Shown: positions 1 through 39,429 of the stretch, in pieces
Layout of the letters: every line of letters begins with the position of its first letter
Position numbering within the stretch: position 1 is the stretch's first letter
DNA from: a virus
Lineage: Duplodnaviria; Heunggongvirae; Uroviricota; Caudoviricetes
Virus record (IMG/VR): IMGVR_UViG_2529292726_000015
Coordinates: 1 to 39,429 of that record
Reading direction: 5' to 3' (one strand)
Length of the DNA: 39,429 bases
The notes under the pieces: model-generated
What the model was told of the DNA's origin: nothing
The model's input: only the letters and a program-made list of their open reading frames with translations
The model's database searches: none
Position numbers and translations under genes: made by a program

Positions 1-930
1 CAGTTCATGGAATGTTGGCGGGTCTCCATCAAATGAGAGTCCAGATGCATTTCTCGCCTTTGTAAAATACTTTGATACTGTTTTCGGGGAAAGCGGATCG
101 TGATGCTTTGATGCAATTATTGTTTCACTGCCGCTGGCCTTCCTGCATTTCTGTAGTGTATCAGCCAATGAGATATTGAGCGCGTCAATCCTTAGCGTCA
201 GCGGAATGGCGAGCTTAGCCCCTGTTTTACCCTGTTCAATGTGAAGATAGTTGTCGTTTATGTCTGACCATTTCATTCTGCACAAATCGCCGACTCTCTG
301 CCCTGTAACGACAGCCAAATCCATCGCCAGTCTTAGCCAGATTGGGAGAGGTTCGGCTGCATGGTAAATCTCGACATACTCATTAGCTGTCAGCCTTGAG
401 CGCCTTACTTCTGACTTTGCTGTGCGGGTTGCTGTTACCGGATTCGTTGCTACATGCCCCTCGGCTATTGCCTCACGAAAAACGTCAACAAGGGTTGACC
501 TGATTAATTTTGCGGAAGCCGCTTTACCTTCTGCTACGTAGGTGTTTAGCATTGCTGCCACCTCTTTCGTTGATATGTCAGCGAGCGGTTTGTCCGGCAA
601 TTTTCTTCGGATTGCCCTGATTTTGCTGGCGTAGTCGAGTAGAGTTTTCGGCCTGATACCCCTCTCGCTGAGGATTGTTTCATATCGGTCAAGCCACGCA
701 TGAAGAGTGACTACGTCAGCGCCTTTAATTCTGTCTATCAGTGACTCACGCCTGTTCTCGGATAGCAACTCAATATTGGCCTGAATAGCCTCTGAAACTG
801 CTATCCTTCTGTCTCTGCCTAATCCGAACTCTTTACCCGTCCTTGGGTCCCTGTAGCAGTAATATCCATTGTTTCTTATATAAAGGTTAGGGGGTAAATC
901 CCGGCGCTCATGACTTCGCCTTCTTCCCAT
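1..930 (-). CDS. int: Tyrosine integrase, lambda Int-like; C-terminus lies beyond window start
   Basis: Minus-strand ATG at 928-930; frame runs off the window; N-terminus reads MGRRRSHERRDLPPNLYIRNNGYY as recalled for lambda Int; overlaps xis as in lambda. Confidence 0.88.
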   Translation of the reverse strand, partial: MGRRRSHERRDLPPNLYIRNNGYYCYRDPRTGKEFGLGRDRRIAVSEAIQANIELLSENRRESLIDRIKGADVVTLHAWLDRYETILSERGIRPKTLLDYASKIRAIRRKLPDKPLADISTKEVAAMLNTYVAEGKAASAKLIRSTLVDVFREAIAEGHVATNPVTATRTAKSEVRRSRLTANEYVEIYHAAEPLPIWLRLAMDLAVVTGQRVGDLCRMKWSDINDNYLHIEQGKTGAKLAIPLTLRIDALNISLADTLQKCRKASGSETIIASKHHDPLSPKTVSKYFTKARNASGLSFDGDPPTFHEL

Positions 931-32661: not shown

Positions 32662-33300
32662 TTAATTGCGAATGGAATCGCGGAACTCTTTACTTGATAG
32701 AAAAGGATCTGTTCTCCTTAACTCATCATAGTTTTTATTAAACTTTCTTGCTTCACCAGGGTATCTGTTGAACAAAACATTGCAGAAAAAAGAGAGCAAT
32801 AACTCACATATGAATGCTAATATCCTGAAAAATAAAGGTATAAAAAGAAGGAAAGGTTCATTGAAGTCTCTATTCCAAACAAAATAGACAATCATCCCGA
32901 CATACCAAATTGATATCCCTATACTGATGATTGTTCCAACAGAGGTAACTACGATCCCGATTAAGTCGGACAGTCTGTTTGCCAGTAACTCATTTGAGTA
33001 TCTTGCAATCATATACCGCCAACATTTTGCAATATCATCCTGATCTGTAGAGTCTTCTGGAATGGCTAGGCTTCTACATATTGAAGCAGCTCTTTTTTTC
33101 TCAACTCTTTTTGAGAGCCATCCATTAAAGAGATACATCAACACCTGCGTTGCTATTCCTGCACCAAGTGATATCAAAGACATCCCCAAAAATCGCCACC
33201 CTGGAGATAGTGACTGGTACTGCCAAACAAAAAAAATTAAAAAACCTAATGATCCTATGACATAGGCTGATGTATCGCTATATATATCTATTTTTTTCAT
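32662..33300 (-). CDS. Polytopic inner-membrane protein; superinfection-exclusion (SieA-like) candidate by position
   Basis: 212 aa with several hydrophobic segments; strongly AT-rich; opposite strand to virion genes; sits where P22 carries sieA. Confidence 0.5.
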   Translation of the reverse strand: MKKIDIYSDTSAYVIGSLGFLIFFVWQYQSLSPGWRFLGMSLISLGAGIATQVLMYLFNGWLSKRVEKKRAASICRSLAIPEDSTDQDDIAKCWRYMIARYSNELLANRLSDLIGIVVTSVGTIISIGISIWYVGMIVYFVWNRDFNEPFLLFIPLFFRILAFICELLLSFFCNVLFNRYPGEARKFNKNYDELRRTDPFLSSKEFRDSIRN

Positions 33301-33678
33301 TGAGTAGCCACTCCTTAGTTTTGAGCAGGATACCAGATGATACTGTATTGGTGGAGTGGTGTGTGAAAACGTGTCAACGACAAACCATCCACAACTTGGA
33401 CGAATGATTTAGCAAAAAGTGCTATTTTTGGTGTTTAGTGTCATAGAAAAGTGAATAGCTCACTTTTCAACATTGCATGAAACTTGCAGGAAATGTGACA
33501 TTACCTTATAGGTAACTTCGGCGAAAATGCAGTAAATGTGAAACGTAATGGTTTAAACATGTCGCTAAAGTGGTTGTAAGTTAGCCTCCGAAGGATTGCT
33601 GATAGCTTTGTTATAGTATTAAATGACATTTGACATAGTTGGATACTTAGCTGTGGCTATCAAGATGGAGGTGTGTTC

Positions 33679-34122
33679 ATGCTTACTTGTTTTGATGTCG
33701 CCGACTACTTCCTGTCGCGGTGTGACGAGGATAGCGGTGACACAATCTCTAATTTAAAATTACAAAAGCTTGTTTACTATGCTCAGGGTTTTTCATTGGC
33801 GTTGCTTGGCGAGCCTCTTTTTCAGAATAAGATGGAAGCTTGGATGCATGGCCCTGTTGTCCCTGAGCTTTATCGCCGTTATAAACAATATGGTAATGGC
33901 GCTATCCCTTCTCCAGAGTCTTTTGATGCTGAAAAATTCAGCGAAGAACAGTTAGAGCTATTAGAAGAAGTCTGGGATGTTTTTGGGCAATTTTCTGCCT
34001 GGAAACTGAGGAACATGACACACGAAGAGTCACCATGGAGATCAAACTATATTGAGGGTGTTGGTGGTTCTGAAATTAGCTCTAAGGAGATGGCAGAGTA
34101 CTTTGCAACTCGGATTAACTAA
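33679..34122 (+). CDS. Panacea (DUF4065)-domain protein, putative antitoxin-type component
   Basis: LKLQKLVYYAQGFSLALLGEPLF...EAWMHGPVVPELYRRYKQYG matches the Panacea/DUF4065 signature as recalled; ATG at 33679 preceded by GGAGGTG. Confidence 0.65.
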   Translation: MLTCFDVADYFLSRCDEDSGDTISNLKLQKLVYYAQGFSLALLGEPLFQNKMEAWMHGPVVPELYRRYKQYGNGAIPSPESFDAEKFSEEQLELLEEVWDVFGQFSAWKLRNMTHEESPWRSNYIEGVGGSEISSKEMAEYFATRIN

Positions 34123-34126
34123 CGAG

Positions 34127-34546
34127 ATGGCAAGAAAATCTAAAAGGATTATCCCCCCTGCTGAATCTACAGGTAAGTTAAAGTTAGGGCCGCAGTCAGG
34201 GGGGAATTCAGATCAAAAGAAACCGAAATTTTCATTCTGTTACATCCAAAGCTCTCACTGCATAACGAAATGCCAAAAAGATGAGAAAGCTGGCTTAGCT
34301 GATAAATTATACAGATTAAGTCAACTAACATGGGCAGAGATTAAGCAGCAAGGTAGGCATAAGCTTGGATTTGAGAAGATTGCAAGGGGTGCGATTAAAG
34401 CAGGTATCCCCAGTCATATAACGGAAGACGTAGATCATTTCTTGGCTTTTAGATTTGATGATTTGAAAGCCATGGTTGGTTATCGTCTTGGATCGACATT
34501 TTTTGTTATATGGCTTGATAGAGAGTTCAACCTATACAAGCACTAA
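34127..34546 (+). CDS. Unrecognised 139-aa protein immediately downstream of the Panacea gene (candidate toxin/effector partner)
   Basis: ATG 5 nt after the Panacea stop; basic N-terminus (MARKSKRIIPP...); no family recognised. Confidence 0.45.
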   Translation: MARKSKRIIPPAESTGKLKLGPQSGGNSDQKKPKFSFCYIQSSHCITKCQKDEKAGLADKLYRLSQLTWAEIKQQGRHKLGFEKIARGAIKAGIPSHITEDVDHFLAFRFDDLKAMVGYRLGSTFFVIWLDREFNLYKH

Positions 34547-34547
34547 T

Positions 34548-34575
34548 AAAACCCACCGTCAGGTGGGTTTTTTAT
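34548..34575. terminator. Bidirectional rho-independent terminator between convergent genes
   Basis: Stem AAACCCACC-GTCAG-GTGGGTTT flanked by A-run on the left and T-run on the right. Confidence 0.6.
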
Positions 34576-34598
34576 AAGGAGTAATCATGATTTACCCA

Positions 34599-35135
34599 TC
34601 AAACAACCCACCAGTTTGCCTGATTGGATGCCAGCCTTGCAGTTTTTATGGAATTAATTATGCCATGCTCAAGAGCCTTGTTAGCATCCAAAATGGTCGA
34701 GTCTGCTATCAGGGATGCCCACCTAATATGGGTTCCGATGTCGATATTGAACGTCTCAACGAAGCGATCAAGATCGTTATCGAGGCATTTCCCGTACTCT
34801 CTCAATCTGGCATGGTCGGCGGCTGGGGTGGCAAAGCCCCATAATAGAGGATGTAACAGGAATCTTGATAATGGGTTTGCGAAACGTTCTGAGCCAGCCA
34901 GGAAAACGATATTAGCTATGGACTCAACATTGCTTATGTTGTGAGTTCTAACGGTAACAGGGAGTGACTTAAGAAAGTTATACGCAGTAAAACCAGCGGC
35001 AGTTTCCCCTCCCTGACTTGATATATGGATATTTAATTCAGTTGCGCCTTGAGATAATGCGGTGAGACAGTGGTTCTGAAGTTGCCCAACAGTGGCGGTG
35101 TTAACGGGGCATAAGAAATGAATTGTGTGCAGCAT
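34599..35135 (-). CDS. ClpP-like (S14/ClpP-crotonase fold) serine protease homolog
   Basis: IHISSQGGETAAGFTAYNFL...ISNVESIANIVFLAGSERFANPLSRFLLHPL aligns by eye with E. coli ClpP (YINSPGG...CMGQAASMGAFLL...MIHQP), including candidate Ser and His; ATGA overlap with mnt stop. Confidence 0.6.
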   Translation of the reverse strand: MLHTIHFLCPVNTATVGQLQNHCLTALSQGATELNIHISSQGGETAAGFTAYNFLKSLPVTVRTHNISNVESIANIVFLAGSERFANPLSRFLLHPLLWGFATPAADHARLREYGKCLDNDLDRFVETFNIDIGTHIRWASLIADSTILDANKALEHGIINSIKTARLASNQANWWVV

Positions 35136-36886: not shown

Positions 36887-38599
36887 ATGACAGATTCAAT
36901 AAATGCCAATGTTGTAGTGAGTATGCCTTCGCAACTCTTCACTATGGCACGTTCTTTTAAAGCCGTAGCCAATGGTAAAATTTATATCGGAAAAATTGAC
37001 ACTGATCCGGTAAATCCTGAAAACCAGATTCAGGTTTATGTGGAGAACGAAGACGGTTCTCACGTTCCTGTTTCGCAACCAATCATCATTAACGCTGCTG
37101 GTTATCCGGTATATAACGGACAGATTGCCAAGTTCGTAACTGTGCAAGGCCATTCTATGGCTGTTTATGATGCGTATGGTGCACAGCAGTTCTATTTTCC
37201 TAATGTGCTGAAGTATGACCCTGATCAGTTACGCCGAGAGCTTGCAGGAGATAATGGTTCAAATCTGGTTGGTGGTCTTCCGTTTGATTCTATGTATGGA
37301 GATCTCTCTACTACTGAAGATAACACAATGTCTATAAATGAACGTCTAAATTGGAGTAGAAAAACAGGTAAGACAGTAGAGCTTCCAGCAGGAAGGTTTA
37401 AAGTAAGCGGAGAGCTTGAACTTGGCGGTGTTAAGTTGAGAGGTAGATCTATAGGTTTTCGTAATAGTGACGGTACGGTACTTGTAGGTGTTGGGCAAGA
37501 TAGACTATTTAATCAATCTGAAAGTACATTTCCTTATTTCGCTTCCACAAAACTTGAAAGTTTACGCATTGAAAATGTTATATGCGGAATAGAATTTGGT
37601 TATCTGAATAGAGCTGAGTTTGAAGATATACATATAAAATGTACTGGTACAGGAGTGAGATTTGGGCGCGCTGGAAATGCGGGACCACAATGGAATATTA
37701 TGCGCAGATGTACAGTGGAAAGTATTGGTGGAAGCGCGATATACATGAATGGAGCAGAGTGGTGTAATAACAACACTTTTGAGCTTTGTTTCTTTGAAAG
37801 CAAGGAAAACGCAGATATACCAGCAGTGGTTATCGATTGTGCTGGAGGGTTTGGGGCAATTGATAACATTTTTATTGGGACAGAAATAGCATCTGAAGGA
37901 TATGGTGTTAGGCTGAAAAACGCTAAGGCAACTCATTTTTTTGGTGCATACTTAGAATGCTATGGGCCATCAATTTGGTTAAATGGCACATCTCTTGGAA
38001 CAAAAGTTGCCGGTGGGGTATTTGCAAGACAACGAAATAACAATGCCACTGGCATTAATTGGGCAATATATCATGAGTCTGGTAATGCATCTATTGAGAT
38101 TGATAAACCTTATGTTGTTGTGTCAAGCCCAATAAGTCAGAATGGGTGTGGCTTTATTGGATATAAAGGAGAAAGTCCGGCGTCTGGCTTGGTGGTGGAT
38201 ATAACATCAGACCCTCACACTGAAAATATCGGGGGTGTTGCATATACAAGATACAAGGATGGATTATTTAGTAAAACAACTAAAATTGTTCATGGAGATC
38301 AAATAATTCAATCAAATTCATCTCCATCACTTTCTCTTCAGCACGAAGATGGCACAAAAAAGGTTGAAATATATAGCAACTCATTAAAAGATGGGGAAGA
38401 TTTTGGTGCCACGCTTAAGGTGAATGATATATCAAGAATGCAATTCACAGCCGATGGTAAGAAAATATTACTTCCTGGACAAACTCTTGGTGTTAAAGCT
38501 GAGGAAAATACTGATACATCAGGCATTAAAACCCATAGGGTTCAACTACTTAATGAGTCAGGGGCGCATCTTGGATATATTCACGTATTCTCAAAATGA
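36887..38599 (+). CDS. 9: Tailspike protein: P22 gp9-like head-binding N-domain fused to a divergent receptor-binding/enzymatic C-domain
   Basis: N-terminal ~115 aa ([44 protein letters not shown]...VLKYDPDQ) match P22 gp9; remainder does not resemble P22; ORF-track start at 36866 is TTG. Confidence 0.85.
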
Positions 38600-39236
38600 T
38601 TCCTTGTTTTTAATATGTTTAATTTTTTATTAAGAGAACGCTCATAATTCTGTGCCACGTTAAAAAATCATTACAACGTAATCGCTTTATCGAGGCGGAC
38701 TCCAAAATAAATCGCCAACTGGGACAATATCAAATTCCAGGTCTGGATCGTCATTGTCCATTTTTCCTTCGCATCGAAGGGTTGGAACATGTGTCATTCC
38801 TTTTTGATTGCATATTACTGGAATGACACAGAATTTCTAACACACCATTTATTAATGGTTAACTTTATGAGTTATCACTATAAAAATATAAATAGGAGCC
38901 ACATGCGTTTAATATAATTATAATTATAGATGTTATCAATTCTGTTTTTATTATATAAAAAGTTAATAATTTATAATATATAGTTTACATTACTAATTAG
39001 ATAATTCTTCACTACTTGATCAAGTGTTTTTCCCAAAGCAGAATTGTTTATGACAAAACTGAGACACACAAAGCTTTGCACTGGATTGCAAGGCTTTGTG
39101 CTATCTGAGATATAGCAATGCTGGTTGCTACACCTTTTCATCAAGCCAGTCCGCCCACCACTGCATCATTTCTCTGCGCTTATCGAGATACTGAGCATGG
39201 TTGTAAATTCAGCTACCCCAGTGTGTTGACAAAAAA

Positions 39237-39271
39237 TTAGCGCAAGAAGACAAAAAATCACCTTGCGCTAA
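39237..39271 (-). promoter_or_regulatory. sib/tI-like hairpin (lambda int retroregulation element)
   Basis: TTAGCGCAAG...CTTGCGCTAA inverted repeat with T-run on the minus strand; matches lambda sequence just left of the attP P arm as recalled. Confidence 0.55.
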
Positions 39272-39275
39272 TGCT

Positions 39276-39429
39276 CTGTTACAGGTCACTAATACTATCT
39301 AAGTAGTTGATTCATAGTGACTGGATATGTTGTGTTTTGTCGCATTTTGTAGTCTATTATTTAACCGTAAATACTTATAAACATATGATTTTTAAATAAT
39401 TTATATGATTTTGTCATCCTTTAGTTCAG
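39276..39429. other. P arm of attR (lambda attP-like Int arm-type sites); core expected just beyond window end
   Basis: CTGTTACAGGTCACTAATAC...TCATAGTGACTGGATATGTTGTG closely matches the lambda attP P arm; window stops at ...TTAGTTCAG where lambda continues with the core. Confidence 0.6.

Follow-up and report, generated by a model that had tools for sequence, protein, structure and literature searches.

Which chromosomal target is used by a temperate phage whose DNA ends in a lambda-like P arm? The question is raised by the window analyzed here, which is the entire draft-genome contig APXK01000123.1 (GCA_000356245.1; 39,429 bp) and carries a P22-like phage of Escherichia coli. The original prediction placed a sib/tI inverted repeat and the P arm of the lambda attachment site attP at the right edge of the window and lambda Int and Xis at the left edge, and from these it deduced integration at a lambda-type attB with the core just beyond the window. 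The current work leads to a different answer. In all likelihood, the end of the window (approximately 200 bp) is the P-arm half of an attachment site that belongs to an HK022-family Int/Xis module, and the overlap of this site, AGTTCAG, pairs with a sequence at the stop codon of yahL.

An HK022-family attachment site at the contig end

The core does not lie beyond the edge of the window; the final 14 bases of the contig already consist of the C site and the overlap. The reference attP cores read ATCCTTT AGGTGAA TAAGTTG in HK022 and CAGCTTT TTTATAC TAAGTTG in lambda, and the window closes with ...GTC ATCCTTT AGTTCAG. The overlap, whose position was set by alignment to HK022 and lambda attP, mismatches that of HK022 at 3 of 7 positions and that of lambda at 5 of 7 (2/7 identical). 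The second core site, C' (TAAGTTG), lies outside the contig, yet it is present in relatives that extend further (L019, L021, L022, L026 and L017, described below). Strand exchange would take place at both edges of the overlap and would require an identical overlap in attP and attB.

Toward the contig end, the elements follow in the order sib/tI hairpin, P1, H1, P2, X1, X2/F, H2, core site C and overlap (Table 1). The inverted repeat and the arm-type Int sites were thus present where they had been predicted (ACAGGTCACTAATAC and TCATAGTGACTG). P1 and P2 flank H1, and the Xis sites and H2 follow at fixed distances from the core. Counted from the overlap centre, P1 lies at -145 to -131 and the H2-like site at -48 to -36, and both offsets are exactly those of lambda. 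The names X1, X2 and F are taken from established knowledge of lambda attP. The arm-site consensus MAGTCACTAT, with one mismatch or none, occurs 4 times in the window against 3.8 expected, a count that is not significant alone; the arm sites are assigned because of their homology to lambda and HK022, and not from motif counts.

Similarity to lambda changes along the arm. In the sib segment, identity is 98% to lambda and 94% to the HK022 stretch annotated as "sib transcription processing site" in X51962, a record that also marks the "attP site" of HK022; over P1-H1-P2, it is 95% to lambda and 100% to HK022. In the 90 bp next to the core (39326-39415), however, identity is 73% to lambda and 79% to HK022 itself, but 99% to HK022-family prophage attR sites in E. 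coli. The predicted match to the lambda P arm therefore holds, strictly taken, for the distal half only. By analogy with the known systems, Int would bridge arm and core sites, IHF would bend the P arm, and Xis and Fis would bind X1, X2 and F in excision. From their sequence, the P-arm and core sites are presumably active.

The genes at the opposite edge agree with this division. The nucleotide sequence of int is 95.8% identical to that of HK022; the 434-type int reaches about 83% over about three quarters of the query. Identity of the encoded protein to HK022 and lambda, respectively, is 61/64 and 55/64 residues in the arm-binding domain, 108/111 and 79/111 in the core-binding domain (97% versus 71%), and 127/135 and 95/135 in the catalytic domain (94% versus 70%). 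Residues 1-44 are identical to lambda Int. Residues 99, 282, 283, 287 and 319 are reportedly, from work by Dorgai et al. in 1995, the determinants of lambda versus HK022 core specificity. In the window, the first four are D, P, K and K, as in HK022, where lambda has N, S, G and R; the fifth is R319 in a full-length near-identical copy. The lambda set (N99, S282, G283, R287, E319) is therefore not that of the window Int. A full-length Int from the same lineage differs from HK022 Int at 14 of 357 residues. An int/xis pair is thus indeed found at the left edge, and it pairs with the P-arm half of a lambdoid attachment site, but the Int/Xis module is, by these comparisons, of the HK022 type and not of the lambda type.

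The nearest named system is accordingly the module of HK022 (X51962 / NC_002166; Yagil et al. 1989). In that module, sib, P1, H1, P2, the X sites, H2 and C follow one another as they do here; the C site and Xis are identical, and the five Int positions have the same residues. C' and the P' arm are found in near-identical relatives of the window. The overlap and the target differ: the overlap is AGTTCAG instead of AGGTGAA (3/7), and attB lies at the yahL stop codon instead of torS/torT. Because of these two differences, the site is regarded as an HK022-family variant and not as HK022's own attachment site. Moreover, the module here is carried in a P22-like podovirus genome, downstream of the tailspike gene, and a 26-codon IntS-type relic stands just before sib. 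Compared with lambda, the hairpin, U-run, P1, H1, P2 and X1 are nearly identical and keep the same spacing to the core, and the arm-binding domain of Int and Xis are close; the core site C, the overlap, the core-proximal P arm and the core-binding and catalytic domains of Int have diverged, and the chromosomal target is another one.

Table 1. Coordinates of the attachment-site elements and of the genes used in the analysis
Feature	Position	Strand	Basis or comparison
int, codons 1-310 of 357	1-930	minus	cut by the contig edge
xis (excisionase, 72 aa)	908-1126	minus	72/72 to HK022 Xis, 71/72 to lambda Xis
TTGC-N6-TTGC box (TTGCGTGTAATTGC)	1139-1152	minus	read directly from the sequence; located like the lambda PI promoter, immediately before the xis start codon
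AntA-like protein	1376-1999	minus	query for left-end relatives
Tailspike gene	36887-38599		exact-protein query for relatives
sib/tI hairpin	39229-39279	minus (int-sense)	fold and homology
Arm-type Int site P1 (ACAGGTCACTAATAC)	39281-39295	plus	no difference from lambda P1; in HK022, only the first two bases are changed (CTCAGG... for TACAGG...)
IHF site H1 (AATCAACTACTTA)	39300-39312	minus	exact match to WATCAANNNNTTR; conserved in lambda and HK022
Arm-type Int site P2 (TCATAGTGACTG on the plus strand)	39312-39323	minus	consensus CAGTCACTAT exact at 39314-39323; conserved in lambda and HK022
Xis site X1 (TATGTTGTGTTTT)	39326-39338	plus	identical to lambda; assigned by homology
Xis site X2 overlapping Fis site (F)	39346-39362	plus	diverged from lambda, near-identical to HK022-family attR sites; assigned by homology
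H2-like IHF site (AATCATATGTTTA)	39378-39390	minus	1 mismatch; assigned by position
Core-type Int site C (ATCCTTT)	39416-39422	plus	HK022 7/7, lambda 4/7 (lambda CAGCTTT)
7-bp overlap (AGTTCAG)	39423-39429	plus	final bases of the contig; the same sequence is present in attB, attL and attR at yahL in other genomes

Junctions at yahL and competing readings of the contig ends

The target was located by means of relatives that run past the two ends of the window. On the right, a look-up of the tailspike protein gave four contigs (L005, L006, L007 and L012) that show no difference from the window between the tailspike stop and ...ATCCTTTAGTTCAG. They come from different samples (GCA_049978025.1 at NCBI, two Logan assemblies and an ENA metagenome), and they continue as AAAGGGTTCC / AAAGGGTTCCACCTGC... 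into yahM-yahN-yahO-prpR. On the left, four contigs found by a look-up of the AntA-like protein match the first 2 kb of the window at 1999/2000 positions (L019, L021 and L022) or 1997/2000 (L026). These run past the first base of the window through the last 47 int codons, a 66-bp P' arm, TAAGTTG and AGTTCAG, and then into yahL, yahK and yahJ.

The unoccupied site, ACTCTTTAGTTCAGAAAGGGT (ACTCTTT AGTTCAG AAAGGGT), occurs in E. coli C and in thousands of other genomes. The stop codon TAG of yahL spans the boundary between B and the overlap in this empty site, so integration leaves yahL intact. When the HK022 attB (GCACTTT AGGTGAA AAAGGTT) is placed beside it, the half-sites are similar and the overlap is different. 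The bacterial site of the identical ends is thus at the stop codon of yahL, between yahL and yahM, and neither at gal-bio, as the prediction of a lambda-type attB would have it, nor at torS/torT.

Among 5426 complete E. coli genomes, the yahL-type junction was found in 2, Z1323CEC0005 and Z1323CEC0006. Both carry a lambda-like prophage encoding NleA and NleG at yahL, with attL ACTCTTT AGTTCAG TAAGTTG and attR ATCCTTT AGTTCAG AAAGGGT. In Z1323CEC0005 (L017; 3,141,000-3,189,000), this is a 48-kb lambda-like prophage with the type III effector genes nleA and nleG. Since the same site is used by this nleA/nleG prophage, the yahL-directed attachment module moves between unrelated phage backbones, effector-carrying ones included. 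A literature search surfaced nothing describing yahL or yahM as an integration site (papers on yahL and prophages were judged by title), and no paper was found that combines yahM with "integration site" and "phage". By its sequence, the prophage of the source strain itself presumably lies at yahL. In that case, its left junction would read yahL-ACTCTTTAGTTCAG-TAAGTTG-P' arm-int 3' end.

Several observations weigh against this assignment. The contig ends at the overlap, without host DNA, and the yahL location is taken from identical ends in other assemblies. The overlap was placed by alignment and not mapped, within an 11-bp identity block (CTTTAGTTCAG) common to attP and attB. The attP form ATCCTTTAGTTCAGTAAGTTG was not found in GenBank phages, IMG/VR, JGI metagenomes or GTDB representative genomes: exact-pattern scans of IMG/VR for the junction or attP form gave no matches, or two chance matches inside unrelated genes, and scans of JGI metagenomes and GTDB representatives gave three chance matches without P-arm homology. 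Because no free-phage attP was found, the evidence for activity of the site consists of independent prophage junctions.

The most serious competing reading concerns the state of the DNA and not the identity of the element. The contig may represent excised or replicating phage DNA in the attP form, or a mixture of this with the integrated form, instead of a pure prophage attR; this is possible, though less likely than not. The contig consists of phage sequence only, and it stops at the last base common to attR (...AGTTCAG|AAAGGG) and attP (...AGTTCAG|TAAGTTG), which is where a fork in the assembly graph would end it. The right end is probably such a fork, with excised phage DNA among the reads. 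Had only the attP form been present, however, one would expect the assembly to extend through the P' arm and become circular. At the left, moreover, the contig breaks off within int, at codon 310, with 224 bp still to go to the overlap. This break would need a second cause, for example another HK022-family int copy in the strain; its position does suggest a second HK022-family int/P' copy there. All close relatives that could be examined are integrated.

It is very improbable that the two contig ends abut in a circular, integration-dead element, produced by a deletion fusing the C site and overlap to int codon 310 (at a junction such as ATCCTTTAGTTCATGG). The idea draws on the six bases AGTTCA that the contig end (...TTTAGTTCAG) and the contig start (CAGTTCATGG...) have in common. 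Two of these six bases are fixed by the core, however, and the rough probability of such a match by chance is 0.05-0.1. With such a junction, each end of the contig would have to be shorter by one base than it is, the site inside int has flanks (GCTACGC and GGAATGT) unlike core-type sites, and near-identical relatives have intact attL and attR. Because the predicted ends are off by one base on each side and the relatives are intact, the shared AGTTCA is treated as chance, which it probably is.

There is extremely little room for an ordinary HK022 attR at torS/torT whose final TTCAG, in place of GTGAA, is contig-end junk. BLAST matches to phages and complete E. coli genomes did all end 5 bases short of the window end, and both the closest Int (1 residue apart) and the closest P arm (99%) belong to torS/torT prophages. 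Against this, the same terminal 14-mer, with identical sequence upstream, is present in the four independently assembled contigs that run into yahM and in the two complete genomes, and the empty chromosomal site itself contains AGTTCAG. An assembly artefact was rejected as the source of the terminal TTCAG for the same reason.

A lambda-type attR at the gal-bio attB, with its core GCTTTTTTATACTAA just past the window, is virtually untenable: sib, P1, H1, P2 and X1 (95-98% identical to lambda) and the first 44 residues of Int would suit it, but the C site (4/7), the overlap (2/7), the core-proximal arm and the core-binding and catalytic domains of Int do not, the GCTTTTTTATACTAA core, the lambda Int residues and a gal-bio flank were all lacking, and the identical sequences in L005, L006, L007 and L012 continue as AAAGGGTTCCACC into yahM and not into bio.

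Retargeting through the overlap

With the HK022-family site at yahL as the favored reading, a further question is whether the new target was acquired through the DNA or through the protein. The lineage keeps an HK022 Int and Xis and HK022 arm and core sites, yet it would pair with ACTCTTT AGTTCAG AAAGGGT and not with torS/torT (AGGTGAA) or gal-bio. A yahL-type attP was rebuilt from the window and its left-end relative L019 and compared with the torS/torT-type module of one genome (Z1323CEC0001). Over the interval -200 to +1300 relative to the overlap, 14 nucleotides distinguish the two modules, and 3 of these belong to the 7-bp overlap itself. The full-length integrases of the yahL and torS/torT lineages differ at 1 of 357 residues (D303N).

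Residue 303 (D versus N; window positions approximately 22-24, minus strand) was considered as a target determinant and rejected, as phage Gally and an Stx1a phage at torS have D303 together with AGGTGAA. D303 and N303 had first looked linked to the yahL and torS targets (2 versus 2). The residue was compared in L001, L003, L017, L019 and L033-L038, and the polymorphism is neutral or hitch-hiking. Since the integrases are near-identical and residue 303 does not track the target, retargeting resides, as far as sequence comparison can tell, in the overlap DNA, as in a natural lambda site-affinity variant.

What is known of the two systems agrees with such a change. The attB of HK022 lies between torS and torT (PMC6814406). 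Experiments with engineered attP/attB pairs of HK022 (Kolot, Yagil et al.; PMC7736782) showed that its Int accepts any 7-bp overlap shared by the two partners: the overlap "can be arbitrary if identical between the recombining pair", and approximately 5 conserved bases are enough in each of B and B'. The targets of those pairs are synthetic or come from the human genome. The site described here is natural and bacterial, and it fits the same pattern (...CTTT-N7-AAAGG...), as does a further family target at ibs/mdtA (...CCTTA-N7-AAAGG...).

There is also an analogy to lambda site-affinity (saf) mutants. These mutants were reportedly isolated in the laboratory, in lambda, by Weisberg, Enquist, Foeller and Landy in 1983. 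In them, a changed attP overlap with an unchanged Int shifted preference to a site with the same overlap, and left-side overlap identity is conserved at secondary sites (PMC2817482). The leftmost AG of the overlap is likewise kept in AGTTCAG. In contrast to the laboratory mutants, the lineage described here is a natural HK022-family variant and is found on at least 2 unrelated backbones (P22-like, and lambda-like with NleA). The history proposed is integration at a secondary site followed by an excision that would have carried the bacterial overlap into attP, as in lambda saf mutants. A saf-like origin of the AGTTCAG overlap, by capture from a secondary attachment site, is likely on this analogy.

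The third target of the family lies between the ibs toxin genes and mdtA, where the overlap is AATAAGG (attL GGCCTTA AATAAGG TAAGTTG; attR ATCCTTT AATAAGG AAAGGGT). This attL was seen in L035-L037 (locus approximately 380-400) and the attR in L039 (17,990-18,020); the strains are E. coli 2022N21-074, CE0007a and GPEC709. Of the 5426 complete genomes, at least 85 have the attL of the ibs/mdtA type, at least 194 that of the torS type, and 2 that of the yahL type. Three copies of the mdtA-site Int were examined: two share one protein (WP_061360905.1), 3 residues from the yahL-type Int, and the third is 12 residues away. The literature search found no paper combining mdtA with prophage, integration site and torS. 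The lineage of the window has the rarest of the three targets, and it was not found described.

These counts and comparisons open a broader proposal, for and against which the case appears to us evenly balanced: the HK022-family integrases of E. coli may form a natural "site-affinity series", in which nearly the same Int, the same Xis and C/C' cores and near-identical arm sites are directed to three targets (torS|torT by AGGTGAA, ibs|mdtA by AATAAGG and yahL|yahM by AGTTCAG) by the overlap alone. If this is true, natural lambdoid phages acquire new places of insertion when they take over the overlap of a secondary site, with the protein unchanged. The same integrase, to within 1 residue, at different sites, with 3 overlap bases as the sole consistent difference, is direct comparative evidence of a DNA-only change of insertion site. 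Earlier demonstrations of such retargeting came from saf mutants of lambda made in the laboratory and from HK022 sites that had been engineered. In practice, an insertion site inferred from the type of integrase would misplace this prophage, and the yahL and ibs/mdtA sites are natural alternatives to the torS/torT landing site for HK022-based integration vectors. The machinery itself (sib, P arm, Int and Xis) is known; the overlap directed at yahL is a genuine, if modest, variation on it that occurs in nature.

The sib hairpin and the rest of the element

The sib/tI hairpin is built on an inverted repeat with 11-bp arms, ATTAGCGCAAG (39236-39246) and CTTGCGCTAAT (39262-39272). A plus-strand A-run at 39230-39236 becomes a U-run (UUUUUU) after the hairpin in int-sense RNA. 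The fold has an energy of -30.7 kcal/mol (z = -3.9), and 0 of 200 shuffled sequences fold as well. A simple terminator scan did not call the hairpin, its apical loop region being beyond the limit of that scan, and no family in Rfam matches it.

In lambda, the circular form of the phage DNA places sib downstream of int. In circular DNA of the present phage, the hairpin would likewise lie downstream of int, approximately 145 bases beyond the core. By analogy, transcripts from a PI-like promoter would end at the hairpin and U-run (tI) and be stable. Antiterminated PL transcripts would read through and form a longer stem, as folded here, which RNase III would cut; the int message would then decay and Int would be lowered. 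In the prophage, the hairpin would stand at the opposite end from int, so that induced PL transcripts would escape it and both Int and Xis would be made. RNase III processing and termination at this hairpin are thus to be expected by comparison with lambda. At the other edge of the window, the TTGC-N6-TTGC box suggests, on the same analogy, C1/cII-activated transcription of int in a P22-like phage.

The prediction that the window spans nearly the whole prophage was borne out. Only 224 bp are absent, all on the left side, where the 3' end of int, the P' arm, C' and the overlap would follow; from these sequences, the full prophage is approximately 39.65 kb. By gene content, the contig holds the complete set of a P22-like phage of E. 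coli. The set includes genes for a C2-like repressor, an O-like replication protein and a DnaB-like helicase, for gp3, the large terminase, and the P22 portal, scaffold and coat, and for gp7, gp20 and gp16. SieA, Arc, another Arc-family protein (Mnt-like), Ant and the tailspike complete it.

Between gp16 and the tailspike, the accessory region at 32662-35135 encodes SieA, a SocA/Panacea-domain protein, a ClpP-family protease, Arc and the second Arc-family (Mnt-like) repressor. This region varies among otherwise near-identical relatives; one of the right-end contigs (L005) has P63C-domain genes instead.

A further coding stretch was observed at 39125-39205 on the minus strand. It encodes ...IYNHAQYLDKRREMMQWWADWLDEKV*, and these residues match without a difference the 26 that precede the terminal E of an IntS-type (P4-like) integrase. 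Where other P22-like prophages have this integrase, its gene lies directly after the tailspike and adjoins argW. From this C-terminal match and the place of the gene elsewhere, the 26 codons between the tailspike region and sib would therefore be a relic of an older integrase module. The attR sites on the torT side have the same relic, and the stretch is also covered by BLAST matches to phage 434.

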